Part shown: positions 37,701 to 62,054 of the stretch, piece after piece | Position numbering within the stretch: position 1 is the first letter of the stretch | Layout of the letters: every line of letters starts with the position of its first letter | Assembly: GCA_963822445.1 (NCBI GenBank) | Contig: CAWGHO010000002.1 | Location: 2,080,001-2,144,000, forward strand | DNA: 64,000 nt | Reading direction: 5' to 3' | Origin: an uncultured Acidobacteriota bacterium | Lineage (GTDB): Bacteria > Acidobacteriota > Thermoanaerobaculia > Gp7-AA8 | Translations under genes and position numbers: made by a program | The notes under the pieces: model-generated | What the model was told of the DNA's origin: nothing | The model's database searches: none | The model's input: the letters and a program-made list of their open reading frames with translations, nothing else

Positions 37701-37974
37701 CACCGCCCCCGGCTCTTACGTCCGCACCGAAGACCTGTCCCGCCTGGAAACCGGCGCCCGCTTCTGGCACCACCACGTCGGCGCCGCCTTCCTCCGCTCC
37801 TACCTCGCCGAGAGCGCGAAAGGCTCGCACCTGCCGGCCGACCGCGCCCACACCCGCATCCTCCTCAACGCCTACCTGCTGGAGAAGGCGCTCTACGAGA
37901 TCGTGTACGAGATGAACAACCGGCCGGACTGGGTGAAGATCCCGATGCGGGGGGCGCTGGAACTGCTCCGGTAG
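34711..37974 (+). CDS. treS: Trehalose synthase fused to maltokinase (TreS-Pep2)
   Basis: RLDAIPYL, AEANQW and LRNHDELTLE in the N-terminal part; AEQSNT, IHGDYHLGQVL and IDFEGEP in the kinase part. Confidence 0.95.
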   Translation: MTNEDYWYKDGIIYQTHVRAFFDSNDDGIGDFQGLTRKLDYLQDLGINILWLLPFYPSPLRDDGYDIADYTAVNPAYGTLADFKAFLKEAHRRGIKVVTELVINHTSDQHPWFQKSRRAKPGSPWRDFYVWSDTPDKYTDARIIFKDFETSNWAWDPVAKAYYWHRFFSHQPDLNFENPAVHDALIKALDFWMDMGVDAFRLDAIPYLFEREGTTSENLPETHAYLKTIRAHMDKKYPGRMLLAEANQWPEDSLPYFGDGDECHMAFHFPVMPRMYMSLAMEDRFPIIDIMSQTPPIPENCQWAMFLRNHDELTLEMVTDEDRDYMWRTYAKDKEARINLGIRRRLAPLMDNHRGRIHLMNGLLFSFPGTPIVYYGDEIGMGDNIYLGDRNGVRTPMQWSADRNAGFSRANPQRLFFPVIIDPQYHYEQVNVEAQQSNQYSLLWWMKRLIALRKRYKALGRGSMEFLHSENRKILAYVRRYEDETILVVANLSRLVQCFELDLTQYRGMVPVELSGGTKFPVIGERPYFLNLGPFAFYWFTLQREVAPEVTTEDAPLVSARTWDEVFAARSRDAIERALRGYLPTRRWFGGKARVINSVSVRDAIELPNDMRLLLLDVEFTDGEPQMYLLPAAIANVRREQDQGRNLPVIARLREGAILYEPVQEEAFAGALLDTIARKRQLKGKHGSVVGLSTRAFKDLRGPDKQLESHVLSAEQSNTAILYGQRLFLKLFRRLESGINTDFEITRFLNEETTFANTPRVGGTLEYRLDKGGEPTTVAILQGFTANSGDAWAYTLDAIGRYFDHLLSDPAAADRIAKVTPHDDVFALSEKPAPDIARETIGGYLADAELLGVRTAQLHLALASRDDDRAFAPEPFTPHYQRSIYQSMRTQIVQTMQLLRKNLKDHPEYAELLDKETELHDRIRDILNGKIDARRIRIHGDYHLGQVLYTGNDFVIIDFEGEPARPLSERRIKRSALRDVAGMLRSFHYAPYAVLFGTAPGSYVRTEDLSRLETGARFWHHHVGAAFLRSYLAESAKGSHLPADRAHTRILLNAYLLEKALYEIVYEMNNRPDWVKIPMRGALELLR

Positions 37975-38091: not shown

Positions 38092-39057
38092 ATGACCGAC
38101 AAACCGAGGCTCATGGATCGGGTGAGCGGGGAGTTGAGAGCGCGCCACTACAGCCGCAGGACAGAAGAAGCGTACGTAGGCTGGATCAAGCGATTCATTT
38201 TCTTTCACAACAAGCGACACCCTGCGTCGATGGGTGGTGACGAGGTCAATGCGTTCCTCACGCATCTCGCGACGAACGAGAACGTTAGTGCGCCGACGCA
38301 GAATCAGGCGCTCTGCGCGTTGCTGTTCCTCTACAGATTCGTGCTGCAGGATCCCTTGCCGTGGCTGAACGATGTTGTCCGCGCGAGACGGATTCAGAGA
38401 CTTCCGGTTGTCGTGACGCCGGACGAAGTGCGATTGGTGCTGGCGCAGATGAGAGGTACGTCGCTGCTTGTCGCACAACTCCTTTACGGTGGCGGCCTGA
38501 GGCTTCTCGAGTGCCTTCAGTTGCGCGTCAAGGACCTCGATTTCTCGCGCCGCCAGATCTACGTCCGCGACACGAAAGGGAGTCGTGATCGCGTCACGCT
38601 GCTGCCCCAGGCGGTCATCCCGTTGCTGAAGGAGCACATCGAGCGTGTCCGGGCGCTCCATGATGCCGACCTGAAACTGAATTTCGGGTCCGTGTGGCTC
38701 CCCACAGCGCTTGCGCGGAAGTTTCCCAATGCGGACCGTGAGTTCAAGTGGCAATGGCTTTTTCCCGCGACCACCCGGTACGTCGACCGTGAGAGCGGCC
38801 TTGAGCGCCGCCATCACCTTCACGAGACCGCGATCCAACGCGCCGTTCGCACCGCGGCGCTGGCTGCGGTCCCGGACAAACGCGTGACCTGTCATACCTT
38901 CCGTCATTCCTTCGCGACCCATCTCCTCGAGCGCGGGAACGACATCCGCACGGTCCAGGAGCTTCTCGGCCATCGCGACGTATCCACGACGATGATCTAC
39001 ACCCACGTCCTGCGCCTCGGTCCCCTCGGCGTCCGCAGCCCGCTCGACCCGTTTTGA
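38092..39057 (+). CDS. intI: Integron integrase
   Basis: [10 protein letters not shown]; catalytic R (GLRLLE), [14 protein letters not shown] and TMIYTHV; IntI-specific insertion [23 protein letters not shown]. Confidence 0.97.
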
Positions 39058-39541: not shown

Positions 39542-39985
39542 TCAGGCCTTGGTGGCGGCGGCCTCTTCTTCCTGCCGTGAGAGTCTGGAGTCCACAGACT
39601 CTCCAGGCATCGCGTCGAAGTCCGGATCCCAATCGCCCACATAGATCGCATTGCCATCTTGATCGACGAAGTTGACGTAGTTGCCGGCTTCGGACTCAAT
39701 GATCCCGCTAACCTCGACGCCATGGCTGCGCAAACGGTCGGCGTACGCGTCGATCGATAGGTCCGGCGATAGGACGAGCCCTATTTGCACGGAGCCGTTC
39801 GTGCCTGGCTTCGGAACGTTCTGCTTCCAGGGATGCAGGCCGATCAGCAGGCTCTTGCCCGCCAACACGGTGGCCCAGTGATCGCCGTACCGGTTAGTGA
39901 GTCTCAGCCCCAGCACGTCCGTGTAGAACCGAATGGCGTTGTCCATGTTCGAGACATAGATCGTCGCGTTGCCTCCGTAAATCAT
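39542..39985 (-). CDS. Cassette 1: VOC/glyoxalase family protein
   Basis: IYVSNMDNAIRFYTDVLGL and FVDQDGN motifs; AAGGAG RBS. Confidence 0.88.
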   Translation of the reverse strand: MIYGGNATIYVSNMDNAIRFYTDVLGLRLTNRYGDHWATVLAGKSLLIGLHPWKQNVPKPGTNGSVQIGLVLSPDLSIDAYADRLRSHGVEVSGIIESEAGNYVNFVDQDGNAIYVGDWDPDFDAMPGESVDSRLSRQEEEAAATKA

Positions 39986-40027
39986 GGCTGACAGCTCCTT
40001 TCTGTTTGGAGGATACTCTGGCATCCC

Positions 40028-40402
40028 ATGCGCGCCGCAAGGATCCACTTCAAGGGCCAGTTCGCTGTCGACCGCGCGCGCGACGAGCCACTCTCGCTGC
40101 AGATCGTCCGTAAGCTGCAGCGCGCGATCGAATGCGGAGGCGTGCCTCGCGGCGCGACACTCCCGTCATCGCGGGCGCTGGCGCGCGCGCTCGGGGTCTC
40201 CCGCAACACGGTGCTCAGCGCCTACGACGAGCTGAAAGCTCGTGGGTTGATCGCCGGGCGCCGCGGCTCAGGGATGCAGATCGTCGTACCTGGGGCTGTG
40301 AGAAGCTTCGATCTGCGACGGCTCCTGCGCGAGGCACAGTTTCCGGCGCGCAGGATCACAGTCGAGGATCCCGACGGTCATGCCATTTCAGTAGGCTACT
40401 GA
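40028..40402 (+). CDS. Cassette 1: GntR-family winged-helix regulator
   Basis: LPSSRALARALGVSRNTVLSAYDEL..RGLI..RRGSG. Confidence 0.88.
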   Translation: MRAARIHFKGQFAVDRARDEPLSLQIVRKLQRAIECGGVPRGATLPSSRALARALGVSRNTVLSAYDELKARGLIAGRRGSGMQIVVPGAVRSFDLRRLLREAQFPARRITVEDPDGHAISVGY

Positions 40403-40923: not shown

Positions 40924-41307
40924 TCACAGCTTGGCCTTCTTGGGAAAAATTGTCACGTCGGGTAGGCCACTGAATCCGGAGTCGGTGGTTACGAGCGTAG
41001 CGTCGCTTTCGCGGGCGAATGCCAGCATCATCGAGTCAGCCATCGCCAAGCCGTGCTCAAGGCTCAGATCTGCCGCCGTCAGCGCAACTTCCTCGGTCAA
41101 ATTGACGACGACGGTCTTCTTCATGGTGGCCACGGCGTCGAGTGCCTCGTCCTCTGACCGTTCGCGCTTGATCCACTTGTAAACTTCGTAGATTGCGACG
41201 GTCGGAGTGATGACGTCCGCTGGGCGGCGCAACCTCGTCGCGAACTCCTCGGCGTGCGGACCATCCGCGAAAAACTCGATCCAACCCGAAGAGTCAATGA
41301 CTATCAA
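40924..41307 (-). CDS. vapC: Cassette 2: VapC PIN-domain toxin
   Basis: VIDSSGWIE, YEV, LAMADS and LVTTD acidic PIN residues. Confidence 0.92.
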   Translation of the reverse strand: MIVIDSSGWIEFFADGPHAEEFATRLRRPADVITPTVAIYEVYKWIKRERSEDEALDAVATMKKTVVVNLTEEVALTAADLSLEHGLAMADSMMLAFARESDATLVTTDSGFSGLPDVTIFPKKAKL

Positions 41308-46105: not shown

Positions 46106-46170
46106 CGGAATCGTTATTTGGGAGCCGATCGCTACTATGCCGTTTGGACGAGTGCGAAAAGTCTTGAGGC

Positions 46171-46368
46171 GCCTAACTACTGCCAGGAGCTGTCGCGGCC
46201 CGGCTTCGGTCCGCCGGCCGAGCCGGCTGCTCTTTCGCCAGCGTGACGGCGTCACGGCGGTTGCAGTTCGCCACTCGCTGCATGGCAGTTCATTGGCGGC
46301 AACCGCCGCGCGCTCCGGCTTCGGCACGTGGGCCCTTGGCCGCGCAGCTCAGGCGATAGACGTTAGGT
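46171..46368 (+). repeat. attC 6 (198 bp)
   Basis: GCCTAAC ... GTTAGGT. Confidence 0.92.
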
Positions 46369-46391
46369 GGACCAGGGTAGAATCCCCATCG

Positions 46392-47186
46392 ATGGCAAGA
46401 ACTCCGCGGTGGGAAGCCAGACCGGCCAAAGACGGTGTCGGCGTTGTTCATTTATCGAAGTGGGGATATTTCGCAGATTTTATTCGCCAAGAGATGCTTA
46501 GTGCGCGGTCTTATATCTGGAGAGGGCAGGCGGCTGCGAAGTGGAAGCTCGAGTCTACCTTGGATCGGCTGCTCCGCCGACGAGGAAAACTGAAAGACCC
46601 AACGATCCGCGACCAGCATCTCAGGCGATTCAAGCTGTCGAGCCGGGGCCGTCGGGGTGCGAATCCAGCACAGCTCATCTCCGACAACGACTGGTGGGCT
46701 CTAGGACAGCACTTTGGCCTCGCAACTCCGTTACTGGACTGGACCACGTCTCCGTATGTTGCGGCGTATTTTGCATATGCCGCCGAGGACAACGATGGAG
46801 ACTCGCGCCGCGCTGTCTTTGCCTTAGGGCGTAAGTCGGTCACACAGAAGACTCTCGAGATTACGCGAACTGCCGATCCTGAAGCCGGCAGGCCGGACAT
46901 CGTGGAGTTTCTTGAACCACTGTCGGACGAGAACTCACGCCTCGTGAGTCAAGGAGGGCTGTTCACTAGAGCTCCTGACGCTTCTACGATCGAAGAGTGG
47001 GTAAGCGACAACTTTGTGGGTGATGTCGGCGTATGGCGCCTACTCAAGATAACGCTGCCTAGTGCGGACCGAAGCGTGGCGCTGCAAACTCTTAACCGGA
47101 TGAACATCAACCATCTCTCGCTGTTTCCTGATCTGTACGGTGCGTCCAAGTTTACAAATCTTGACCTCCTGATCGATAATTATTGA
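46392..47186 (+). CDS. Cassette 7: FRG-domain protein
   Basis: IWRGQ, GQHFGLATPLLDWTTSPYVAAYFA, SQGGLF and SLFPDLYG motifs; true start ATG 46392. Confidence 0.9.
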   Translation: MARTPRWEARPAKDGVGVVHLSKWGYFADFIRQEMLSARSYIWRGQAAAKWKLESTLDRLLRRRGKLKDPTIRDQHLRRFKLSSRGRRGANPAQLISDNDWWALGQHFGLATPLLDWTTSPYVAAYFAYAAEDNDGDSRRAVFALGRKSVTQKTLEITRTADPEAGRPDIVEFLEPLSDENSRLVSQGGLFTRAPDASTIEEWVSDNFVGDVGVWRLLKITLPSADRSVALQTLNRMNINHLSLFPDLYGASKFTNLDLLIDNY

Positions 47187-47707: not shown

Positions 47708-47986
47708 GTGCAGTTCACCTGGGACCCGAGAAAGGCACGTGAGAACCTTCGGAAGCACGGCGTTTCCTTCGAGGAGGCATCCAGCGTCTTCGGAGATCCG
47801 CTCGCGCGAATTCATGATGACCCCGCTCATTCCGTCGCGGAGAGTCGTGAGATCATCGTTGGGCATTCGGGCGCTGGCCGCCTTCTCTTGGTATCCTTCA
47901 CGGAGCGAGGCGACTTCGTCCGACTCATCAGCGCCCGACACGTAGACGGTAAAGAACGACGAGACTATGAAGAAGGCATCGACTAA
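47708..47986 (+). CDS. brnT: Cassette 8: BrnT family toxin
   Basis: FTWDPRKARENLRKHGVSFEEA, HS..E.R and RLISAR motifs. Confidence 0.92.
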   Translation: MQFTWDPRKARENLRKHGVSFEEASSVFGDPLARIHDDPAHSVAESREIIVGHSGAGRLLLVSFTERGDFVRLISARHVDGKERRDYEEGID

Positions 47987-48263
47987 ATCATCCGATGTTT
48001 CCGCGAAACGCGTAACGGCCAGTCGGGTCCCGCGCGGCATCAAAGCCAAACGCGATCAGTTGAGGCCGCACTACGACTTTGATTACTCCAAATCGCGTCC
48101 GAATCGCTTTGCCGACCGTGTCGCTGAGGGGGCCGTAGCCGTAGTTCTGGATGCCGACGTAGCGACCGTCTTTCAATCATCAGAAGCAGTCAATGCTTTC
48201 CTCCGCTCAGCAATCAGCGCAATGCCTCCGGCTGAACCACGCCGGCGAAAGCGCACCTCTTAG
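47967..48263 (+). CDS. Cassette 8: cognate antitoxin (BrnA-like)
   Basis: LRPHYDFDYSKSRPNRFA and VLDADVATVF.SSEAVN..LR; overlaps brnT. Confidence 0.8.
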   Translation: MKKASTKSSDVSAKRVTASRVPRGIKAKRDQLRPHYDFDYSKSRPNRFADRVAEGAVAVVLDADVATVFQSSEAVNAFLRSAISAMPPAEPRRRKRTS

Positions 48264-48271
48264 CCAGCGGC

Positions 48272-48469
48272 GGCTAACTACTGCCAGGAGCTGTCGCGGC
48301 CCGGCTTCGGTCCGCCGGCCGAGCCGGCTGCATCATCACCAGCGTGACGGCGTCACGGCGGTTGCAGTTCGCGGCGCGGTGCTTCGCACGTTGCTCGCGG
48401 CAACCGCCGCGCCGCTCCGGCTTCGGCACGCGGGCCCTGGCCGCGCAGCTCAGGCGATAGACGTTAGGC
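48272..48469 (+). repeat. attC 8 (198 bp)
   Basis: GGCTAAC ... GTTAGGC; similar to attC 6. Confidence 0.92.
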
Positions 48470-48614
48470 CGACGAATCACGTTTGCCCTGACGGCGCGCT
48501 TTCCATGAAACTCCGCTTACCTGCACGCCTGCAGCGCAAGACGATCGGATCACAGCCGACGCTCTCAGTCTGCAACTCGTTACGCCGACGACAGGCTGTC
48601 GAATCCCGTATCAT

Positions 48615-49655
48615 GTGACTCCTTTGCGAAACACGCTTCTCCTACTATCTGGCGGCGCGGCTGGGAACGTGGTTCGCAAAACCGTTCTTTCGTACTTGGC
48701 TCAGCATGGCTTTGCGGTCGCGAACACATACCTCGCGTCGCGGAGGCGGTTCAAAGAGGCAGGGCTCGTCTTCCTACCGGAGCACGAACTTCGCGAGCTT
48801 TGTTCCATCACGGGGCGGGGCGCACCTGATAATTATCTTTATGGATTTAACATCGCCGAGCTCGCAGAGCAACTTCGCAAATCAAATGTGGTACTCGGCA
48901 GCATTGCATGGCCAGCAGACATTAGACGTTTACGTAAAGCCTTCCCTGATCTCTGCGCGGTTCAGGTGCGTTGGGATATCGCGCAGTTTGAGGAACTCGC
49001 CAGCCGGCGAGGCGAGTCGGCAGACGTCTTGCGGATCAAGTTAGAATACCTGCAGCGCGACGCACAACGATACAATCAGCAGTCTGGGCTGTTTGATCGA
49101 GTTTTGTGGCGCGGCAGCAATCCAGACTTTCTCACTAACCAGCTTCACGCACTGATAACGAGCATCGCCCCCGATGCTACGACGGAAGATCTTCTCCCGT
49201 CGCCGCTGGCCCCGGCCAGCTACGATCACATCGTTCTAGCGACGACCCTTGAGCGATCGGTGTTGGCAAAACGGCCTGAAGAACTGTTTCGCCTCACGCC
49301 CCGTCAGTTCGAAGAACTCATCGCTGATCTCCTTGCAGCAGACGGTTTCGACGTTGAGTTGACACCGCTGTCACGCGACGGTGGCGTGGACATTATCGCC
49401 ATTAAGAACAGTTTAGTAATGCCGCACCTATGTCTCGTACAGTGTAAACGGTATAGCCCGGCAAATCCGGTTGGCGTCGAGCCTGTGCAGAGACTATATG
49501 GCGTGCTGGCGGCGCAACGCGCGAATGCTGCGCTTATCGCTACAACGTCTCGATTTACAAGGGGCGCGCGTCAATTCAAAGAGTCCGTAGGCTTTCAGCT
49601 CTCACTTCAAGACTACCAACAAATTGTCGAATGGCTGAAGCGTGTGTTTAGCTGA
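48615..49655 (+). CDS. Cassette 9: guanylate-kinase-like domain fused to an Mrr-type restriction endonuclease domain
   Basis: C-terminus has RQFEELIADLL, RDGGVDII, VQCKRY and TTSRFT. N-terminus follows the GK layout (LLLSG..., NYLYG, RRGES, FDRVL) with a degenerate P-loop. Confidence 0.8.
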   Translation: MTPLRNTLLLLSGGAAGNVVRKTVLSYLAQHGFAVANTYLASRRRFKEAGLVFLPEHELRELCSITGRGAPDNYLYGFNIAELAEQLRKSNVVLGSIAWPADIRRLRKAFPDLCAVQVRWDIAQFEELASRRGESADVLRIKLEYLQRDAQRYNQQSGLFDRVLWRGSNPDFLTNQLHALITSIAPDATTEDLLPSPLAPASYDHIVLATTLERSVLAKRPEELFRLTPRQFEELIADLLAADGFDVELTPLSRDGGVDIIAIKNSLVMPHLCLVQCKRYSPANPVGVEPVQRLYGVLAAQRANAALIATTSRFTRGARQFKESVGFQLSLQDYQQIVEWLKRVFS

Positions 49656-49663
49656 ACAACGCG

Positions 49664-49860
49664 GCCTAACTTTGGTGTGAAGCTGATGCGGCCCGGCTTC
49701 GGCCCGGCAGCCGAGCTGCCTGCTTCACCGCCAGCGTGACGGCGTCACGGCGGTTGCAGGTCGCCACTCGGTTCTTCGAACGTCATTGGCGGCAACCGCC
49801 GAGCCGCTCAGGCTTCGGCACGCGGGACCGGCCGCACAGCTTACACCAAGGAAGTTAGAC
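49664..49860 (+). repeat. attC 9 (197 bp; TTTGGTGTGAAGC arm type)
   Basis: GCCTAAC ... GTTAGAC; arms as in attC 1, interior as in attC 6/8. Confidence 0.92.
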
Positions 49861-49918
49861 GCACTGACGGGAAGGAAGTCGTTGCTGACGGCCACGTCTC
49901 GCGCGAAAATGCCTGAAT

Positions 49919-51706
49919 ATGGCCTTGCCTATTCGGATCACAGGCGTCGACTTCCACAACTTCAAGGCGTTTCAGCAGTACTCGGTCACTCTTCATAATC
50001 TGAACATCATGGTTGGCCCGAACAACAGCGGGAAATCGACGATTCTGGGCAGCTTTCGTGTACTTGCGGAAGGTCTACGACGGGGTCGGAGCAAGACACC
50101 CGAATGGATAACTGCTCATGGGAAGCGTCAGCTTGGCTACACGATCCCAACGGACGCGATATCGATATCACTCGAAAACGTCCACACCAACTATTCCGAC
50201 GAGGACAGTTGGGTTAGGTTCCATCTCTCCAATGAGAACTCGCTCGATCTGTATTTCCCCCATGACGGAGGTTGCTATCTACTAACGAACAGCACAAATA
50301 AGTACGTTCGGACCAAGGCCGACTTCAAGAATGAGTTTCCCGTGACGGTCGTGCCCGTGCCGGTGCTTGGACCCGTCGAGCACGAAGAACAGGTCGTGGA
50401 ACGGGAAACCGTCCGAACTGGCCTGAACACCCATCGCGCCTCGCGCCACTTCCGCAACTATTGGTATCTCAATGACGACGGCTTCGATGACTTCGCGGCT
50501 CTAGTAGCGAGGACGTGGCCCGGAATGGAGATCGAAAGGCCGGAGCGGCCCGGCGCGATGGCACAATATCTCGTAATGTTCGCGCTGGAGAATCGCATTT
50601 CGCGCGAACTGTATTGGTCCGGGTTTGGCTTCCAGATCTGGTGTCAGCTGCTAACGCACATCTCGCGGGCGTCGGCCGACACCCTACTTGTCATTGACGA
50701 GCCTGAGATCTACCTTCACCCGGACGTTCAGCGGCAGCTCGTGTCCGTGCTGCGTGACGCCGGGCCGGACATTCTGGTTGCCACGCATTCGACAGAGATT
50801 ATGGGTGAAGCGGATCCATCCGAGATTCTTGTCGTTGACAAAACGAAGCGGTCGGCTCAACGACTTCGCAATGTAGAAGGCGTGCAAGCGGCGATGCGCA
50901 CGCTAGGCTCGCTTCAGAATTTTACGTTGGCACAACTAGCGAGGACGCGTCGAGTGGTTTTTGTCGAAGGGCTTTACGATCTCAAGATCGTTCGACGGTT
51001 TGCGCAGCGTCTTGGTCACGCTGATGTTGCGTCGGGGACACCTTTCACTCCGGTTGAGTCCGGGGGTCTCGGATCGTGGGAGCGCATTCGGGGAACCGCC
51101 TGGGGGATCGAGAAGGCGCTGGGTAGTACTCTGGCTGTAGCTGCCATATTCGATCGCGACTACATGTGTGAGGAAGAGGTCGCCGCGATGGAGGCTGACT
51201 TGGGTCAGCATCTTCGATTTGCGCACATACACGCTCGCAAGGAAATAGAGAACTACCTGCTTGTGTCGGCCGTTCTTCAACGAGCTTTGGTCCGAGCCGT
51301 CAAAGATCGCGCCGGCGACGGTGGTGCCAACGCAGTACCGCCCACGGCAATTCAGACTTTGCTTGACGAAATCACGGAGGCTGTGAAGACGGAAGTGCAG
51401 GCCCAGTACGTCGCCAGGCGATCGTCGTATCTGGCGCGCGACCGACGCGGTGCGGCAGCAATCGCTACGGAGACACTAAGGTGGTTTGAGGATCGCTGGC
51501 GCGACCTCGATCGTCGGCTCGGAATCGTACCCGGCAAGGACGTCTTGGGCACCTTGCGCGCAAAGGTGCAGGAGAAATGGGGTGTCAATCTTACTGATGT
51601 TCGGATCATTGGTGAGTTCAGACGCGATGAAGTTGCCCACGATATGGTTGCGTTGATTACCGCGTTGGAGTCTTACAAAGGTGGCAAGAAAGCGCACGGC
51701 GTCTAA
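49919..51706 (+). CDS. Cassette 10: ABC-type ATPase-TOPRIM protein (OLD/PARIS-like nuclease)
   Basis: GPNNSGKST, SGFG, IDEPEIYLHP and ATHS; TOPRIM motifs FVEGLYD, FDRD and KEIENYL; stop in R''. Confidence 0.88.
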   Translation: MALPIRITGVDFHNFKAFQQYSVTLHNLNIMVGPNNSGKSTILGSFRVLAEGLRRGRSKTPEWITAHGKRQLGYTIPTDAISISLENVHTNYSDEDSWVRFHLSNENSLDLYFPHDGGCYLLTNSTNKYVRTKADFKNEFPVTVVPVPVLGPVEHEEQVVERETVRTGLNTHRASRHFRNYWYLNDDGFDDFAALVARTWPGMEIERPERPGAMAQYLVMFALENRISRELYWSGFGFQIWCQLLTHISRASADTLLVIDEPEIYLHPDVQRQLVSVLRDAGPDILVATHSTEIMGEADPSEILVVDKTKRSAQRLRNVEGVQAAMRTLGSLQNFTLAQLARTRRVVFVEGLYDLKIVRRFAQRLGHADVASGTPFTPVESGGLGSWERIRGTAWGIEKALGSTLAVAAIFDRDYMCEEEVAAMEADLGQHLRFAHIHARKEIENYLLVSAVLQRALVRAVKDRAGDGGANAVPPTAIQTLLDEITEAVKTEVQAQYVARRSSYLARDRRGAAAIATETLRWFEDRWRDLDRRLGIVPGKDVLGTLRAKVQEKWGVNLTDVRIIGEFRRDEVAHDMVALITALESYKGGKKAHGV

Positions 51707-52032: not shown

Positions 52033-53112
52033 ATGTCAGTTGACCATGAGACATATCGGCTGGTGCACTATACCAATTCACCACAGGTTATCGGCTCGAT
52101 TCTGCGCTACGGCTTCTTACTTGTCCCGAACAAACGCTACCTCATAAATGCGCTGCTCGGGGAGGATCTGTTTGCAGAACGCGAACCTCAGGAGTTCGGC
52201 ATGGTTTCATTTACCCAACTGCCGGTCGCCGAGGCTACGGCGCACCGTGAGCGTTTCGGCCGTTTCGGCATCGTCGTTTCATGGGATTGGGCACTGTCGC
52301 ATGACGCGCAGCGAGTCGTCTACGTCGACGAAGGTGGTCCGATCGCGGCGACACTCGCCTGGCTCTTCCGCCTCGCGAAGCAGGAGTTGGAGCGTGCTAC
52401 CGACGGCGCTCCAAGCTCGGAGACGCTGACAAACAAAGCGTTGGCCTTCACGAAGGGTTCAACACTGTATGCGCGCCTACTCACGCTGTACGAATACATG
52501 GAACCGGAGCGGAGCTCTGGCCAGGTCGAATGGCGAATAGTCAACAAGATCCCTCAGCACCACGATACGGGAAAAGAACGCGGTGAACTGGTCCGCGAAC
52601 TACTTGAGATTGTGAAAATGTGGAAGAACTTTGGCTCTATCCGGCTGACGCCGAACGACGTTCACGCTTTCATCGGTCCTCGCGGCGCGAAGGCCGAGCT
52701 CGAAAGTGAGCTCCCCGAAGAATTCAAATCGATACCAGTTCTCACGTATCGGTCCGGAGATCGCCTCTCGCGTCTGGGGAGAGCGCGCGAACGGGCGTTG
52801 TTCGCCCATCGCGGTCGTGAGCGCGTCGTCGAGGTCGAACGGGAGCCACCGCCAGATGTTATCTGGATCACAAAGAATTCGAATGCAGCTTACTACTTGC
52901 CAGAGGTCGGCCGGATGTGGGGCGGACGGCTGTTCATCGACGAACTTGACGCGGCCATCCGAATGATCTTTCAGTATCAAAGCACTACCGGGTTTCTTTG
53001 CGAACTCGCAATACCTGTACGCGATGCGCTATACCTGTTGAACATTCTCAAGGCGATGCAACATGACAACGGTCTCGATCGTCTCAATCCGTCGAATAAC
53101 GCCGGTCGGTAG
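52033..53112 (+). CDS. Cassette 11: AbiGi-like (abortive infection) protein with C-terminal extension
   Basis: LVHYT...SILRYGF, MVSFTQLP...H...FGRFGI...WA...VVYV and EWRIV match the AbiGi pattern. Confidence 0.7.
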   Translation: MSVDHETYRLVHYTNSPQVIGSILRYGFLLVPNKRYLINALLGEDLFAEREPQEFGMVSFTQLPVAEATAHRERFGRFGIVVSWDWALSHDAQRVVYVDEGGPIAATLAWLFRLAKQELERATDGAPSSETLTNKALAFTKGSTLYARLLTLYEYMEPERSSGQVEWRIVNKIPQHHDTGKERGELVRELLEIVKMWKNFGSIRLTPNDVHAFIGPRGAKAELESELPEEFKSIPVLTYRSGDRLSRLGRARERALFAHRGRERVVEVEREPPPDVIWITKNSNAAYYLPEVGRMWGGRLFIDELDAAIRMIFQYQSTTGFLCELAIPVRDALYLLNILKAMQHDNGLDRLNPSNNAGR

Positions 53113-53120
53113 CGCCGGCC

Positions 53121-53317
53121 GGCTAACTACTGCCAGAAGCTGGCACGGCCCGGCTTCGGTCCGGCGGCCGAGCCACCTGCATAATCGCCAGCGGGACGGC
53201 GTCACGGCGGTTGCAGATCGGCAGGCGTTGCATGCAACTTCTCGCCGGCAACCGCCGCGCCGCTTCGGCTTCGGCACGTGGGCCCTGGCCGTGCAGCTTA
53301 GGCGATAGACGTTAGCC
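53121..53317 (+). repeat. attC 11 (197 bp)
   Basis: GGCTAAC ... GTTAGCC; near-identical to attC 10. Confidence 0.92.
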
Positions 53318-55066
53318 CGACGAATCGCGCTCCACGACGGGCTTCGATCCACGCGCAACTTCCACGATGGCGTCGAGAACCTCGCGCACCTCCGGTGCAA
53401 TTTCGTCGTGTGAGACGAACTGAGCGAGTGTGTGATAGTCGCTCTTCCGCATCAAGTTAGGTAGGCCGATCCGCGCGAAGAACTTCGCAAAGACGGGATC
53501 CAGAAAATCGTCACTCGCTTTAATGTCCGCAGAGAATGGCAGCGGCCGACCAAGCGTGGCTAAAGCCGACGAAACCTCATTGATCGATTCAGTCATGGCC
53601 CGCCGGAGGCGATCGCGCTCGGCAACTTCGAATAACGGTCCTGCCATCATTCCACTGGCGTTCGATTCGGCGAATGCTAGTAATGCTCGCTGGGTGGTGA
53701 TGTAGTTCTCGAGTTCGCGTTGCTTCCACATTATCTCGCGAAGCGGCTTTCCCGTTTGCAAGGGTAAATCGACCCGATCAAACAATGCCACGCCGACGAG
53801 ATCTGGTTTTGCTTCCCGAATACCATAGAAGTGATCCCGCGCTTTGGGTGGCTGGTTCGCGACGTAGTGCACGAGTGGGCGATCGAGGATCGTCGCGGCA
53901 GGATGGTCCAAAGCGCGAGCCAGCGCCCGCAATATCGCGAGATCCGTGGAGCCCTCAAGGTAGAGCACCCAGCCGGTAACTTCTGCCTGATAATATTGCT
54001 CGAATCCGATCTCCTTTAACGCCTTCTTTAGTTGGGCGCCGCGATCGTCGATGCGGTGGGGTTTGCCAACAAATGCAACAACCACGTCGCGATCGGCAGC
54101 CTCATTGAGAATGACTTCCGAATGACTAGCCGCGACTATTTGACACCCTTGCTTAGCAGCGATGTCAGTGAGTAACTGGTACATCTCGCGTTGCCGCAGA
54201 ATCTCGAGATGGGCGTCTGGCTCGTCAAGAAGCAAGACGGTCTTCGGGTTTCGATAAATCTGTGCGAGAAGCAGAAGTATTTGCTGAAGGCCGCGGCCGG
54301 CGGATGACAGATCTAATTGGGTTCCTGACCGCTCGCGGTACGTCATGCGAATTTCGCCGCGTTCTGGTATGTATTCCGGCGGATCTAGTTGAATTCCGAA
54401 GAAACGGCGCATGTGGTTCAGCAAACTTGGCCATTGGTGACCGCCATTCTCTTTAAAAACCTCAAAGCATAAGTTCCGCAGAACTTCAGCCGTACGCCCT
54501 TCCCCGATCCTGACATTGATTGCACCGGTGTCAAGGCGGGTTTCTTGTGCAGCAAGACCTGACATCGCAGGAAGGAACACGACGTTCGTGTCGCCTGCCG
54601 CCTCAGGCACTGGCATGCGCTGCGGTGAGCGATCGTTAGTGAGACGTAACGGTCGGCAGTAAAGCGACTCCTCGTTAGCGTAATCGAACTCTAAGCCACA
54701 CTCCCATTCGCCATCGAGCGAGACACCGGAAACGATGATGTCGATACGTACGTTTTGCGTTTGCGTCTTGCCTTCAACCTTCTGGACGTCACGTACGTGA
54801 AGGTCTTTCCAAAGATGGTTCGAGGTCGGCACAGGAAGCGCGACAAGATCTCGACGGTTGATCGTGACACCAGGTCGCTTCTCGGGCGTATCGCGACCAG
54901 AACGCTTTTCGTTCCAGCGCTTTAAGCCGACGTTCCAGAGGGCGAGTGCTTGAAGGGCGGTGGTCTTCCCCGAGTTATTGGGCCCAATAAATACGACTGT
55001 CTGGCCCATCTCGACCTGTACCTCAGCGAGACGTTTGAAGTTGCGTACGGTTAAGCCGGTCAACAT
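53312..55066 (-). CDS. Cassette 12: antisense-oriented ABC-type ATPase-TOPRIM protein (OLD-like)
   Basis: GPNNSGKTT, SAGRG, LDEPDAHL and ASHS; YLEGSTD, FDR and RELENY; stop is the TTA of the R' core. Confidence 0.88.
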   Translation of the reverse strand: MLTGLTVRNFKRLAEVQVEMGQTVVFIGPNNSGKTTALQALALWNVGLKRWNEKRSGRDTPEKRPGVTINRRDLVALPVPTSNHLWKDLHVRDVQKVEGKTQTQNVRIDIIVSGVSLDGEWECGLEFDYANEESLYCRPLRLTNDRSPQRMPVPEAAGDTNVVFLPAMSGLAAQETRLDTGAINVRIGEGRTAEVLRNLCFEVFKENGGHQWPSLLNHMRRFFGIQLDPPEYIPERGEIRMTYRERSGTQLDLSSAGRGLQQILLLLAQIYRNPKTVLLLDEPDAHLEILRQREMYQLLTDIAAKQGCQIVAASHSEVILNEAADRDVVVAFVGKPHRIDDRGAQLKKALKEIGFEQYYQAEVTGWVLYLEGSTDLAILRALARALDHPAATILDRPLVHYVANQPPKARDHFYGIREAKPDLVGVALFDRVDLPLQTGKPLREIMWKQRELENYITTQRALLAFAESNASGMMAGPLFEVAERDRLRRAMTESINEVSSALATLGRPLPFSADIKASDDFLDPVFAKFFARIGLPNLMRKSDYHTLAQFVSHDEIAPEVREVLDAIVEVARGSKPVVERDSSG

Positions 55067-55635: not shown

Positions 55636-56796
55636 ATGAACGAAGTACTCGATCGTGCTGTCCCGTCTCGAACCATCGTCGAGATTGTTCCTGACAAGGT
55701 GTACTCCACTTGCATCACGCCGTCAGCTGTGGAAGTCGTTCTTTTCATCTCTACTTACGATACCCAGGACCCGAAGTCGCCCGCTATTAATCAGCATGGA
55801 TACCAGCGGCCTCCCACGGCCACGCGGTTCCCTGAGATTGCTCAGTATTACCGCACTGCAAACAATAGCGATCGGATCCCGCCGCTGCTCATTTCAGTGC
55901 GTCTCAGTGAGCCTGACGAAATCGCGGAGTTTCTCGAACTTTTAGAAGCTGGCTCGTTCGAACGCATCCACGAGCAATTCGGTTCGGATGTCATGAGCGT
56001 CATTGACGGTCAGCACAGAATGCGTGGGCTCACCTACGCCTGGCGACAGGATCCTGCGTTTTCTCCCCCCATTCCGTTGATACTCTATTTCGGTCTTTCA
56101 TTTTCGGAAGAAGCGGAATTGTTCAACACGATCAATGCGACTCAGCGCAAGCTGCCGAAGGCATTGATTGAAACAACTCGTGGCGACATCACCGAAGTGT
56201 CTGACCTAGGGTACTCGCAGTTGATCAGGCGGGTTGCGTTCAGTCTGTGCCGTGATCCGGACTCACCATGGGGTCCGATTGACGGGCAAGAACAAATCAA
56301 CATGACCGGAGTCCGCGACCCGAACCGATCGGTGACCTACGAAGGTCTTCGGCGGTCAACGTCACACATGTTCCCGAGCACGCTACTCGAGCGACTCCGG
56401 AATATCGATCCGAATCTTCCGACGAGTCTTGCAAAGCGCTACTGGAAGGCAGTAAGCGAGGCCTGCACAGAAGCGTGGTCTGGTGAACCATCCGAGATGG
56501 AAGTCATCGATCCGGAGACTGGCGATGCTGTAGTAGTCCCCATCAAGTATCGCCTTAAGGATCTTGTTGGCGTTGCGGCTCTCTCCAAACTCGGTGCGAA
56601 CATCATCCAATCGCAGATCGACGGTAACCAGGCGAACCGACTGGAACAGCTCGCAGCGAAGCTGGCCGACGTCAACTGGGCCAAGGACGCCGCAAACCCG
56701 TGGATGCGTAGCCAGGCCGGTTTTGCGGGCCAGAAGGACTTGTATGAGATGTTATACAGGCTCGTTTATATGGATGAGCGCCCCGACGATAGGTAA
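55636..56796 (+). CDS. Cassette 13: DGQHR-domain (DndB/DpdB, ParB-like) protein
   Basis: GYQR, VIDGQHR and EAELFNTINATQRKL motifs; GAAAGG RBS. Confidence 0.9.
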   Translation: MNEVLDRAVPSRTIVEIVPDKVYSTCITPSAVEVVLFISTYDTQDPKSPAINQHGYQRPPTATRFPEIAQYYRTANNSDRIPPLLISVRLSEPDEIAEFLELLEAGSFERIHEQFGSDVMSVIDGQHRMRGLTYAWRQDPAFSPPIPLILYFGLSFSEEAELFNTINATQRKLPKALIETTRGDITEVSDLGYSQLIRRVAFSLCRDPDSPWGPIDGQEQINMTGVRDPNRSVTYEGLRRSTSHMFPSTLLERLRNIDPNLPTSLAKRYWKAVSEACTEAWSGEPSEMEVIDPETGDAVVVPIKYRLKDLVGVAALSKLGANIIQSQIDGNQANRLEQLAAKLADVNWAKDAANPWMRSQAGFAGQKDLYEMLYRLVYMDERPDDR

Positions 56797-58659: not shown

Positions 58660-59715
58660 ATGGGAAAGAGAATTCTGTTTCAGGGCAGCTACGCTCCTCA
58701 CCGAGGGAAGCGGAGCGAGACGCCCGCGCATCTGCGCATAGCGGAAGAGATCTCTGCGCCGCTCGGCGAAGCTTTGATCGCGGCGGGTTTCGACCTGATT
58801 TTTACAGGGACGAACGTTCTTGAAAAGGTCATCGGAAATGCCGCGCTCGCCGCGTGTAAGCGATTCGGCGAGAACCCTCGCGAACGCGTTCGCACCTACT
58901 TGAGTGATCCCTCGGCCGGTGGCTTCGGTATGGTGTTGGAAGCGATAGGGGATTCGCGCCAAGACGTTCGAACATTCATCGTTCGCGAAGCAGACGCTTT
59001 GATCGCGCTAATCGGCGGAAAAGGAACGCGTGACTGCATTCAGAAGGCCGAGTTGGCTGGGAAACCGCTTTTCCCCATCGCTGTCGCTGGAGGAGGCGCA
59101 CTGGCGGAGTGGCTGCGGCTGAAACGAGAGGGATACCGGCACCGAAACGCGGGGGATATCGACTTTCTGGCTGATCACGGCGCGGCGCCTGGCGATCTTG
59201 CCTCGGCGATAGTTCATCGCTGCAAAGATCTCTTCGCGCCGGCAAGGCCGCGCGTGTCAAACCGCGTCTTTGTTGTTCATGGCCATGATGCAGAACTCAG
59301 GCTCGAGCTGACACGCATGCTGGATAAGCTCGGGCTAGTGCCCGTGATTCTCGGCGAACAGCCAGACCGAGGTCGGACGGTGTTAGGCAAGCTGGTCGAC
59401 GAACTCGCTGACGTCGGCTACGGCATTGTGTTATTGACGCCCGACGACGCAGGACGGAGGAAGGATGCCCGTCGAACGCAACCGCGCGCGCGCCAGAATG
59501 TAATCTTTGAGCACGGCTGGTTGATAGGTGCGCTCGGTACACAACGCGTCTGCGCGATAGTCAAGGGCGGCGTTGAAATTCCGTCTGACCTCGCCGGCGT
59601 CGTTTACAAGAACATTCCTGAGGGTAAAGGCGTCGACGCCATTGCGATCCACATCGTGCAAGAGCTCAAGTCAGCCGGCTACGCAGTCGATGCGAACAAG
59701 CTCCTCGGCGCCTAA
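58660..59715 (+). CDS. Cassette 15: SLOG domain fused to a Cap12/PycTIR-type TIR domain
   Basis: SLOG: R..IVREADALIALIGGKGT..C...A...GKPLFPI. TIR: VFVVHGHD, LLTPDD, RARQNVIFEHG and EIPSDLAGVVY. Stop in R''. Confidence 0.85.
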   Translation: MGKRILFQGSYAPHRGKRSETPAHLRIAEEISAPLGEALIAAGFDLIFTGTNVLEKVIGNAALAACKRFGENPRERVRTYLSDPSAGGFGMVLEAIGDSRQDVRTFIVREADALIALIGGKGTRDCIQKAELAGKPLFPIAVAGGGALAEWLRLKREGYRHRNAGDIDFLADHGAAPGDLASAIVHRCKDLFAPARPRVSNRVFVVHGHDAELRLELTRMLDKLGLVPVILGEQPDRGRTVLGKLVDELADVGYGIVLLTPDDAGRRKDARRTQPRARQNVIFEHGWLIGALGTQRVCAIVKGGVEIPSDLAGVVYKNIPEGKGVDAIAIHIVQELKSAGYAVDANKLLGA

Positions 59716-59896
59716 CTACTGCCCGCAGCTGTCAGCGGCCCGTTTGCCGCGCTCGGGGCTGAAGCCCCTCGATCCATCCGAGATCCACGGCGGCACGCCG
59801 CTCGCAGATCGGTCGACGTCAATCGCGGCGAGCGGCGCGCCGCTCTGCCCGCACGCGCGTGGGGGCTCGCTGCAGCTGAGGCGACAGACGTTAGGC
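59710..59896 (+). repeat. attC 15 (187 bp)
   Basis: GCCTAAC ... GTTAGGC; divergent interior but same fold. Confidence 0.9.
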
Positions 59897-59914
59897 GGAT
59901 TACAATATCCGGCC

Positions 59915-60973
59915 ATGGCAACGAAAAGGCACTCGCGACCACCGATGGCTGGCGAATCCGCTCCCACTCCGCCAAGCACTTCGAAGCCAGCCGCACCCTC
60001 AAGCGAGTCAGTTCCTTCTGAGGGCGCTGCCGGATCCCCCGCGCCAGACGTCGCCGCAGGCGAGCCCGACCCCGTAGCTGCGGAACCATCACCGACACCG
60101 GAAGTGTCGTGGCCAACCCTGATCAACGAGGGTACCGAATCGGAAATACGTGGCCGCTTCATCAACGAGGTCAACGACATCATAGCGAAAAGCGACGACC
60201 TGGCCGAGTCAGCGATTCTCGCAATCTTGCGTCCGGACGACAGCATCAACGCGTTCGATCTCGATCAAATCTACGAAGCGTTCATGGACCTTGATCCAGA
60301 TAAATACAAGAACGTCGTCTTGATCCTAATCAGTCGCGGCGGCGAAATCGAGCCAGCGTACCAAATCAGCAAACTATGCAAGACGTTTGCGCGTCAACAC
60401 AAGTTTCTCGTCGTCGTTCCACGTCAGGCCAAATCGGCAGCCACGCTGATTGCACTCGGGGCCGATGAAATTCACATGGGTCCCTTGGGTCAACTCGGAC
60501 CAATCGACCCTCAGATCGGTGGTCTTCCAGCACTTGGCGTATCACAAGCATTGCAAACGATAGCATCACTCGTGCAGCAATACCCGAAGAGTGCAGACAT
60601 GTTTGCCCAGTACCTCAGATTGGCCGTAAAGGTGGAGCACATCGGATATAGCGACCGCGTCACGGCGTCTGCCGTACAGTATGCAGAACGGTTACTATCA
60701 TCGAAGGCGCATCTAACGGCACGAATCCCTGAAATTGCAAAACACCTCGTTTACGCATACAAGGATCATAGCTTCGTCATTGACGCGGAAGAATCACAAC
60801 GGTTACTTGGCACTGAATTGATCAAAATGTGGTCGGCGCTTGAAGGCGCAGCTGAGCAAATCTATTCCGTATTCGATTGGGTCAATCTCTGGTTGCCGTC
60901 GTCTCCGAAAAAGAAGCGTCTTGTTGTTACGGGCGCGTTCAATTGGAATGGTGTGCTGCTGTTCCGCGCGTAA
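59915..60973 (+). CDS. Cassette 16: ClpP/SDH-fold serine protease with a Pro/Ser-rich disordered N-terminus
   Basis: LISRGG, AKSAATLIALGADEIHMG, LGPIDPQ and YKDHSFVID motifs; true start ATG 59915. Confidence 0.85.
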   Translation: MATKRHSRPPMAGESAPTPPSTSKPAAPSSESVPSEGAAGSPAPDVAAGEPDPVAAEPSPTPEVSWPTLINEGTESEIRGRFINEVNDIIAKSDDLAESAILAILRPDDSINAFDLDQIYEAFMDLDPDKYKNVVLILISRGGEIEPAYQISKLCKTFARQHKFLVVVPRQAKSAATLIALGADEIHMGPLGQLGPIDPQIGGLPALGVSQALQTIASLVQQYPKSADMFAQYLRLAVKVEHIGYSDRVTASAVQYAERLLSSKAHLTARIPEIAKHLVYAYKDHSFVIDAEESQRLLGTELIKMWSALEGAAEQIYSVFDWVNLWLPSSPKKKRLVVTGAFNWNGVLLFRA

Positions 60974-61244: not shown

Positions 61245-62054
61245 ATGATTCTTCTCTACGCTCAAGGCGGTTCGCGAGAGTTCGAGGTGTGTTCTGAGAG
61301 TGCGATCGCACACGACTGGGAAATCATGCGAGAGGCTGCGTGCGAATTCCTCGACAACTCGTCTCAGCGCAATGTCGCCGAGATTCTTCGTCGACTGCCG
61401 TTCTACCCGTACAACGCCAGAAACCCTTTCGGCGATGAGTTTCAGCTCATCCTTGCGAAAGTTGGTGCCGCAGAGTACGCACAGCTATCGTCGCGCATGT
61501 CTGACGACGCATGGAGGACGGACTTCACCTCTGCCGGTAAAGCTCTCCAAACAGTGGGCTTTCCGGTCCGGTTGATTGCCGTCGAGCTCAAGGTTCAACC
61601 AGACGTTTCGGTAGTTAATCGCCCTAAACCAATCGTCACGAGTAGTACCGTGGAACGGGCTCTTCACGACGCGGAGTTGTTGCTCCGAAGTGCGGGTGCA
61701 ACAAGCGCGGTCGATCGTGCTCATACCGCTCTTCACGGGTACCTGAAGGAGCTTTGCGATCGCTCTCAACTGGCTTACACCAAAGATCCTGGCGTAGCCG
61801 AACTCTTCAAACTGCTCCGCGAGAAGCACCCGGCGTTCTCGGAGCCGATCACGCACGATGAAGAAGTGACGCGAATACTTCGCGCGCTTGCGACAGTTCT
61901 CGACTCGGCTAACACACTTCGGAACCGAGCAAGTGTCGCGCACGCAAACGCGGCATTACTCGAAGAGGCTGAAGCCATGTTGGTAATCAACGCGGCGCGA
62001 ACATTTCTCCACTACATTGATGCGAAGGCCGCGTCGCCTGGTGCCGGCGCCTAA
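61245..62054 (+). CDS. Cassette 17: abortive infection family protein (Abi_C / AbiJ-like HEPN-type C-terminus)
   Basis: SAVDRAHTALHGYL, LRNRASVAH (Rx4-6H) and EAMLVINA motifs; stop in R''. Confidence 0.85.
   Translation: MILLYAQGGSREFEVCSESAIAHDWEIMREAACEFLDNSSQRNVAEILRRLPFYPYNARNPFGDEFQLILAKVGAAEYAQLSSRMSDDAWRTDFTSAGKALQTVGFPVRLIAVELKVQPDVSVVNRPKPIVTSSTVERALHDAELLLRSAGATSAVDRAHTALHGYLKELCDRSQLAYTKDPGVAELFKLLREKHPAFSEPITHDEEVTRILRALATVLDSANTLRNRASVAHANAALLEEAEAMLVINAARTFLHYIDAKAASPGAGA

Follow-up and report, generated by a model that had tools for sequence, protein, structure and literature searches.

A putative guanylate-kinase-derived domain fused to an Mrr-type nuclease in a chromosomal integron cassette of an uncultured Acidobacteriota bacterium

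Within a 64,000-nucleotide (nt) stretch of an uncultured Acidobacteriota bacterium (contig CAWGHO010000002.1, positions 2,080,001 to 2,144,000; hereafter the window, with coordinates counted from its first letter) we analysed the open reading frame (ORF) 48615-49655, which appears to encode a degenerate domain of the guanylate kinase (GK)/PhnN type fused to an Mrr-type nuclease. The anatomy of this fusion is well supported by sequence comparison. On balance, we favour the view that the protein is a stand-alone DNA endonuclease of the defence type, in which an Mrr effector would be combined with a non-catalytic GK/PhnN-like regulatory or sensor domain; we infer the role in defence, the nature of the cue and an allosteric control of the nuclease. 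An earlier note on this DNA had described the two halves of the protein. Beyond that note, we found that the gene alone makes up an integron cassette, which lies in a defence-rich array, that a sister protein (P0003) has an intact P-loop, and that guanine-specific residues are missing in both proteins. The parts of the gene are as follows.

48615-49655, plus strand: coding sequence with GTG start, 346 amino acids (aa), predicted GK/PhnN-like pseudo-kinase domain plus Mrr nuclease.
48615-49169, plus strand: residues 1-185, putative degenerate guanylate-kinase/PhnN-like P-loop kinase-fold domain, homology via P0003.
48648-48683, plus strand: residues 12-23, Walker A remnant SGGAAGNVVRKT, one residue longer through an insertion and with R instead of G before K.
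49170-49277, plus strand: residues 186-221, linker with poor conservation, 7/36 (19%) identity to P0003.
49290-49637, plus strand: residues 226-341, Mrr_cat PD-(D/E)xK nuclease domain (PF04471).
49377-49391, plus strand: predicted metal-binding acidic motif D255-G-G-V-D259.
49440-49448, plus strand: predicted (E/Q)xK catalytic motif Q276-C-K278, aligned with EAK of AspBHI and QAK of 4f0p.

The ORF and all strings quoted in the earlier note (LLLLSG, SGGAAGNVVRKT, RRRFKE..LVF, NYLYG, RRGES..LRIKL, FDRVL and QCK) are present in the sequence. An alternative GTG start at 48669 (V19) is the choice of the gene caller and yields P0001, a protein of 328 aa. Since the longer frame contains a strand-1-like LLLLSG followed by a glycine-rich loop, which together align with VLAG-ASGSGK of P0003, the sequence favours a start at 48615.

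The carboxy-terminal half is readily assigned. A Pfam scan placed Mrr_cat (PF04471) on residues 226-341 with an E-value of 2.3e-29 and 102.3 bits against a gathering score of 21, and the match spans model positions 3-115 of 115; weaker, overlapping matches on the nuclease part were obtained for NA-iREase1 and Mrr_cat_2. Residues D255, G256, G257, D259, K278 and T310 are invariant in 25/25 aligned Mrr domains, and Q276 occupies the E/Q position of the alignment, which is E in most relatives. When the profile of this 25-domain alignment was compared with solved structures, it matched AspBHI (4oc8, E 6e-7) and 4f0p (E 0.008), an entry labelled only 'restriction endonuclease' that we take to be MspJI, and the RDGG.D and (E/Q)AK motifs align in these matches. 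Because the invariant catalytic residues are kept and the motifs align with those of the solved enzymes, the nuclease looks catalytically intact; the D...QxK motif claimed by the earlier note is represented by D255, D259, Q276 and K278.

Among the PADLOC models, PDC-S02, mREase_IV and ZorD gave eight matches, all of which are confined to residues ~219-344. The best PDC-S02 model (PDLC04819, E 1.2e-17) aligns residues 226-341 with model positions 195-306 of 334, and the mREase_IV models match the Mrr part with E 4.5e-17 and 2.8e-12. The statement that the architecture is foreign to the named systems therefore stands, as PDC-S02 and mREase_IV cover the Mrr part only. A scan of 32 ORFs with the nearest Mrr domains revealed an AAA_16-type ATPase at the N-terminus of six, a TIR domain in one and a second restriction-endonuclease-like domain in three, with nothing recognised in the remaining 22.

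The origin of the amino-terminal domain becomes visible only through its homologue. Residues 1-215 match no Pfam or NCBIfam family, a phmmer search of the PDB gave nothing meaningful, and neither the GK model TIGR03263 nor the PhnN model TIGR02322 matches the window protein at E<=10. A phmmer search with residues 1-212 against 1.84e9 representative proteins returned five matches at E<=1e-3, including P0001, i.e. the protein itself. The single true homologue is P0003 (E 3.5e-7, 30% identity, residues 14-198 against 4-186), a protein of 334 aa with a truncated N-terminus, encoded on a 1061-bp metagenomic contig of the Joint Genome Institute (JGI). The other three (P0002, P0004 and P0005) were rejected as spurious, being long repeat proteins that match over short stretches only. 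P0003 shares the two-domain layout of the window protein (BLASTP E 3e-80), and its N-terminus matches TIGR02322 (E 2.7e-14, 53.3 bits, positions 6-174 of 179), TIGR03263 (E 1e-8, 35 bits, positions 5-175 of 180) and solved GKs (best 6wct, E 8e-5). Both model scores are far under the curated equivalog cut-offs of 156 bits for TIGR02322 and 160.45 bits for TIGR03263. The JGI label 'PhnN' for P0003 is not specific, because 53 bits is the level at which ordinary GKs cross-match the PhnN model (50.6 bits for the genome's own gmk); no protein above the TIGR02322 cut-off was found in any of 201 genomes of the phylum.

A two-sequence profile of the window and P0003 N-termini matches a set of 16 GKs from related genomes in hhalign with E 2.1e-5 and a probability of 77%, over 151 colinear columns (12-168 against 6-170). 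A feature search of the ESM-Atlas, which we regard as a lead only, found GK-family and other P-loop kinases as the nearest clusters (score 0.84). AlphaFold2 (AF2) modelling of the N-terminal 200 residues with the 16 GKs in the alignment gave pLDDT 76.1 and pTM 0.71, the fold being partly built in, and the template modelling (TM) scores of 0.64-0.69 against GK structures are therefore counted as consistency and not as independent evidence. One alignment that combined the window protein, P0003, the GKs and the Mrr domains (MAFFT) was discarded, as it placed the GKs onto the Mrr domain. Taken together, the comparisons support an N-terminus that derives from the GK/PhnN group and is neither enzyme itself, with the support being transitive through P0003. 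Since a housekeeping gmk is found on another contig (C3:1648619-1649179, TIGR03263, 202.9 bits against a cut-off of 160.45), the domain is not the GK of the cell. Thus, the GK topology that the earlier note had read from the N-terminal ~185 residues is supported via P0003 and the pair profile, but not by direct detection (E 0.03). Of the checks that the note had proposed, AlphaFold plus Foldseek returned GK matches with a model biased by its GK-containing alignment, and the domain-architecture search retrieved the same fusion in P0003 only.

The motifs of the kinase fold differ between the two proteins. The Walker A motif G-x-x-G-x-G-K-[ST] is absent from the window protein, in which V-V-R precedes K22-T23, and the register of the P-loop is broken (GGAAGNVVRKT versus the intact GASGSGKTT of P0003), in agreement with the earlier note. 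A soil metagenome contig from an unrelated run (X1, covering 48483-49041) reads the broken loop identically save for R21H. Therefore, misassembly does not account for the odd loop. P0003 also has an intact TTR..R motif (KYTTRSLRRGD), whereas the window protein has L40 in place of the TTR arginine and retains R43 together with E48, Y76-G77 and R131. The YG pair is kept in both proteins. At the two lid-arginine columns the window protein has R131 and K142 and P0003 has S119 and R130, and the conserved DID aspartates of GKs are replaced by S/A in the window protein. When the 50 columns conserved in at least 15 of the 16 GKs are considered, 12 are kept in the window protein and 15 in P0003. It is important to note that the equivalents of Y53, E72, T83 and D101 (numbering of the genome's own gmk), which we take from GK structures with guanosine monophosphate (GMP) to include guanine- and phosphate-contacting residues, are absent from both. 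Since these equivalents are missing, neither protein is, judged by its residues, a guanylate kinase, and with the guanine-specific residues gone, GMP or dGMP is not favoured as a ligand. For the window protein, any kinase activity at all is very improbable. P0003, on the other hand, is probably a kinase or nucleoside triphosphatase (NTPase), and the motifs that it has kept show that a nucleotide-binding enzyme stood at the origin of the family.

From these features a mechanism can be proposed. The Mrr/MspJI-type PD-(D/E)xK domain would be the catalytically competent effector. The N-terminal domain would descend from a P-loop kinase of the guanylate-kinase/PhnN family and most likely transfers phosphate no more, because the canonical Walker A and the arginine for the NMP (nucleoside monophosphate) phosphate are gone. 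Probably, the GK-like domain holds the nuclease off until an infection-linked cue arrives. A nucleotide or phosphoribosyl ligand bound in what is left of the pocket could serve as this cue, as could, by analogy with the catalytically dead GK domains of MAGUK proteins, which bind peptides, a phage protein. The more specific proposal, that the GK/PhnN-like domain represents an infection sensor of a new class among PD-(D/E)xK nucleases and that a phage-made or phage-modified nucleotide, a phosphoribosyl compound or a phage protein releases the Mrr domain, is tentative, and we consider it rather doubtful than probable. If it is true, P0003 with its live P-loop and the window protein with its dead one would capture the transition from enzyme to receptor within one defence family.

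The degree of conservation changes abruptly along the protein. Identity to P0003 is 28% for residues 12-214, 19% for the linker (186-221) and 72% for residues 222-346, with a sharp step at about residue 222 that would fit either fast evolution of the sensor or an exchange between divergent homologues. All 346 codons are open, and the insertions and deletions relative to P0003 are in frame. Soil metagenome contigs from four runs of four studies contain pieces ~98% identical to the gene, and gaps in the contig cover of this comparison carry no information. Eleven differences within the coding sequence are among those listed, seven of them synonymous and four non-synonymous (R21H, L83I, N154K and Y203F). 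Among these, the N-terminal 641 nt have 5 synonymous differences on 163 sites and 4 non-synonymous ones on 479 sites, and this ratio of non-synonymous to synonymous polymorphism (pN/pS) of ~0.27 shows, in small numbers, purifying selection on the N-terminus.

The gene is the sole ORF of a ~1.39-kb integron cassette (48464-49854) that is flanked by two attC sites of ~200 nt and lies ~9.4 kb downstream of an integron integrase gene, intI, which has the same orientation as the cassette genes.

48271-48469, plus strand: attC site closing the preceding BrnT/BrnA-like cassette, with CTAAC at 48274-48278 and GTTAGGC at 48463-48469; repeat families D3/D9.
48470-48614, plus strand: non-coding 5' leader of the cassette, with no in-frame start codon upstream of 48615.
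49665-49860, plus strand: attC site of the cassette of interest, with CTAAC at 49666-49670 and GTTAGAC at 49854-49860; repeat families D3/D4/D10.
38092-39057, plus strand: integron integrase gene intI (TIGR02249 match at 38092-39054, E 4e-137, 456.8 bits, cut-off 265).

The cassette of interest starts after G48463. The attC sites were recognised by an inverse core RYYYAAC, a core GTTRRRY and a foldable hairpin, all of which are present; the bottom strand of the downstream site forms a long imperfect hairpin of -63 kcal/mol (z -5.7, with none of 200 shuffles as good). The attC-end motif GCGATAGACGTTRRRY occurs 14 times in the window, compared with 0.53 expected matches, and at least 63 times on the genome contig between 2,121,789 and 2,226,578, i.e. 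over ~105 kb. The intI product also contains the Pfam domains Phage_integrase and Phage_int_SAM_4. With its extent of at least 105 kb, the array is a very large chromosomal integron of the sedentary type, and the window holds its part from 40500 to 64000. No intrinsic terminator was found in the cassette.

The protein family is extremely small: the window protein and P0003 are the only full-length members found in ~15 billion proteins. Word-indexed searches with the window N-terminus, the P0003 N-terminus and their alignment returned only these two proteins. None of 40 related genomes contains a full-length relative, and the 13 that match at all do so from query residue 182 onwards; a match covering the N-terminus was likewise found in none of 24 genomes of the same genus (the tallies of related genomes include the unpublished genome G002). 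A collection with one genome for each of 185,579 species gave 277 confirmed stretches, of which the best 80 contain the Mrr part only, with at most 49% identity, and the best 80 of 108 matches in a metagenome contig collection begin at query residue 154 or later; the contig of P0003 itself did not turn up in the metagenome scan. A hidden Markov model (HMM) of the N-terminal pair was run over 4078 ORFs of 168 loci (80 from the species genomes, 80 from the metagenome contigs, seven from the relatives, and L081, the window's own locus), and its sole match was the window's own ORF. In phage genomes the window N-terminus had no match at E<=1, and phage genes annotated 'restriction endonuclease' were matched by P0003 through the Mrr domain only. 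Judged by title, none of the papers listed deals with a GK-Mrr fusion in defence, which is a weak negative.

Several observations weigh against the view that we favour, namely a defence nuclease under the control of a GK-derived sensor. An HMM of the 16 GKs did not match the window domain at E<=10, and in hhalign the window domain alone reached only E 0.03 and a probability of 1.6% against these GKs, in the same register as the pair profile. AF2 on the full-length two-sequence alignment gave an unusable model (pLDDT 34.6), and the only confident model of the N-terminus is the one from the GK-dominated alignment, in which the GK fold is partly built in. If translation began at 48669, strand 1 and half of the glycine-rich loop would be cut, and the N-terminal domain may then not fold as a P-loop kinase. 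With two members only, conservation cannot reveal which surface matters, and the pN/pS ratio rests on few polymorphisms, among the differences listed. At 48812, within a G-run of the N-terminal domain, contig X1 (depth 4.8) lacks one nucleotide that contig X4 from another run retains; this 1-nt deletion may be an error or a frameshifted allele. Finally, no sigma-70-like promoter was found in 48200-49950, and no RNA sample was listed as containing the cassette. Since a promoter-like site was not found and the cassette is ~9 kb away from intI, the gene may be silent at its present position.

Some of these points would also be expected if the cassette gene were decaying or non-functional, with a drifting N-terminus, a silent gene and a leftover nuclease. 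The broken Walker A, the loss of 38/50 conserved GK columns, the sharp drop in identity to P0003 between the nuclease (72%) and the N-terminus (28%), the lack of a promoter-like site in the cassette, the possible frameshift allele in one metagenome contig and the family size of two all agree with such a scenario. It is nevertheless difficult to reconcile with the open frame of 346 codons and the in-frame insertions and deletions relative to P0003, with near-identical copies in the soil metagenomes of four studies, and with the listed N-terminal polymorphisms, which amount to 5 synonymous versus 4 non-synonymous differences on about three times as many non-synonymous sites. Furthermore, P0003 is equally divergent from GKs in the substrate residues (15/50 columns) although its P-loop is intact, which indicates that the P-loop was lost after much of the divergence had taken place. 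We consider decay quite unlikely. The opposite possibility is that the N-terminus has remained enzymatically active, as a kinase or NTPase whose phosphate loop is non-canonical, with an activity on a nucleotide, a phosphoribosyl compound or a DNA 5' end that would be coupled to cleavage. K22-T23 survive beside a glycine-rich stretch, R43, E48, Y76-G77 and R131 are retained, and P0003 has the full Walker A, TTR..R and a lid arginine. However, the loop is one residue longer than the canonical one and carries a bulky V-V-R at the G position of GK[ST], the TTR arginine is L40, and the DID aspartates are S/A, which makes residual catalysis highly unlikely.

Two further explanations can be considered. 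In place of the usual DNA reader, the GK-like domain could read a modified or flipped-out nucleotide in phage DNA via its remnant NMP pocket, and the protein would then be a type IV modification-dependent restriction enzyme that senses DNA and neither a free ligand nor a protein. The nearest solved relatives of the nuclease, 4oc8 and 4f0p, are both labelled 'restriction endonuclease' and have a C-terminal catalytic domain, PADLOC mREase_IV models match, and an N-terminal reader of ~200 aa followed by Mrr_cat is the layout of the class. Moreover, 9/23 related Mrr ORFs listed share a conserved ~190-aa N-terminal domain ('IWGIHM...') that presumably resembles readers of the EVE/PUA type. Yet the PADLOC and structure matches are limited to the nuclease domain, no DNA-binding family in Pfam or NCBIfam matched the N-terminus, the base-specifying residues of GKs are missing in both family members, and we know of no NMP-kinase fold that reads bases in duplex DNA. 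Altogether, a type IV enzyme appears unlikely. Instead of phage defence, a toxin-like role in addiction, by which the gene would stabilise the cassette array, might be considered because large chromosomal integrons carry many toxin-antitoxin cassettes, and BrnT (47708-47986) and PIN (40924-41304) cassettes are present in this array. But the cassette contains no second ORF as a possible antitoxin, and a self-contained nuclease with a regulatory domain better fits defence proteins; this role would be very improbable indeed.

The favoured reading, a nuclease under a GK-derived sensor, can be compared with several known systems. Like MspJI/AspBHI and the Mrr-type type IV enzymes, the window protein is a single polypeptide in which a putative N-terminal specificity domain precedes a C-terminal Mrr_cat with D...D...(E/Q)xK. 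The usual DNA readers of these enzymes are a winged helix in Mrr and SRA in MspJI/AspBHI; in contrast, the window N-terminus is not SRA, a winged helix or another recognised DNA reader, but a probable derivative of the GK/PhnN fold. With the proteins of PADLOC PDC-S02, a candidate single-gene system only, it shares the size range (324-390 aa) and a C-terminal Mrr-like domain, whereas none of the PDC-S02 models matches it in the N-terminal ~195 positions. With GK (TIGR03263, PF00625) and the ribose-1,5-bisphosphokinase PhnN (TIGR02322) the domain is colinear over a core of ~180 residues (strand 1, glycine-rich loop, T..R..E, YG, lid RG and C-terminal helix); unlike GK, it has no direct model match, a broken P-loop and no TTR arginine. 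A GK fold without catalysis that is reused as a non-enzymatic module is otherwise seen in the GK domains of MAGUK proteins, and the Foldseek search with the GK-alignment model lists 4f4j and 7f7g (GK domain with bound peptide) at TM 0.57, the former entitled 'Conversion of the enzyme guanylate kinase into a mitotic spindle orienting protein by a single mutation'. MAGUK proteins are eukaryotic scaffolds without a nuclease, and the likeness in protein binding would be one of analogy.

Passages of a study on Shedu describe a PD-(D/E)xK core over which 79 families of N-terminal domains exert allosteric control (10.1101/2023.08.10.552793). The single gene, the conserved PD-(D/E)xK core and the varying N-termini described there have a counterpart in the 72% versus 28% identity of nuclease and N-terminus reported here. 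Unlike Shedu, the window nuclease is Mrr_cat and had no DUF4263 match in the Pfam scan; in the same passages 'kinase' refers to adjacent histidine kinases, and they contain no P-loop NMP-kinase-like N-terminal class (10.1101/2023.08.10.552793). The window protein thus belongs to neither Shedu nor the type IV enzymes, though its logic resembles both. Integron cassettes are described as stores of phage-defence genes in two further reports (10.1101/2024.07.02.601719; PMC12614218). The present cassette resembles such defence cassettes in having one promoter-poor ORF plus attC, in an array beside intI with many defence-like neighbours. It differs in its protein family, which was not found in the material searched, and in its long attC sites (~200 nt).

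Single-protein immune nucleases with swappable N-terminal sensors are a growing theme that includes Shedu, bacterial Schlafens, Avs and type IV enzymes. Should the dead kinase half act as a sensor, the nucleotide-kinase fold would join this repertoire, and the protein would be a prokaryotic parallel to the conversion of the GK enzyme into the binding module of MAGUK proteins. The locus is also a concrete case of a large soil-type chromosomal integron that stores one-gene defence candidates, and the gene, being self-contained and ~1 kb long, can easily be tested. Its significance is limited by its extreme rarity, and its activity is predicted from sequence.

The other cassettes of the array part in the window encode a TPR protein and the following candidates, most of them with a likeness to toxins or defence proteins.

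40924-41304, minus strand: PIN-domain toxin.
46137-47186: FRG-domain/PDC-S15 ORF (PADLOC PDLC04937, E 2.6e-88, match from residue 86).
47708-47986: BrnT-like toxin, with a small downstream ORF taken as its antitoxin.
49919-51706: OLD/GajA/AriA-like AAA_15/AAA_21 ATPase.
52033-53112: weak AbiGi-like ORF between the two ATPases (Pfam 17.2 bits, below the cut-off of 22.4; PADLOC E 2.6e-5).
53312-55066, minus strand: second, different OLD/GajA/AriA-like AAA_15/AAA_21 ATPase, on the strand opposite to most cassette genes.
55636-56793: DndB-like ORF (PF14072, E 6e-14).
58660-59712: CAP12/Pycsar-type TIR effector domain (PF10137, E 2.5e-36; PDC-S35, E 7e-62).
59573-60970: ClpP-like SDH protease domain.
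61245-62051: Abi_C/AbiJ-like ORF.

The FRG/PDC-S15 ORF as listed starts within the preceding attC repeat (46161-46382), and since PADLOC matches it from residue 86 onwards, an internal Met near this residue is probably the true start. The ORF with the CAP12/Pycsar-type TIR domain has an N-terminus of ~195 aa without an assigned family and is likewise a candidate for single-gene defence. The same array contains, ~30 kb downstream of the window (G000:C2:2173829-2174212), a second and distant ORF with an Mrr domain; it is 29% identical to residues 214-343 (E 4.6e-4) and has an open frame of 304 aa.

As to the integron as a whole, the median spacing of the attC motif across the array is ~1.5 kb, and the attC sites, which are unusually long (~200 nt), fall into at least two sequence subfamilies (D1/D2/D7 versus D3/D4). 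The 3' end of intI faces the array, which begins at ~40.5 kb, unlike the classical divergent arrangement, and a Glyoxalase-family ORF lies on the minus strand between intI and the first attC (39542-40048). Directly upstream of intI, an ORF encoding a fusion of the TreS-maltokinase type (34711-37974; Alpha-amylase, Malt_amylase_C, Mak_N_cap and APH) marks the chromosomal edge of the integron.

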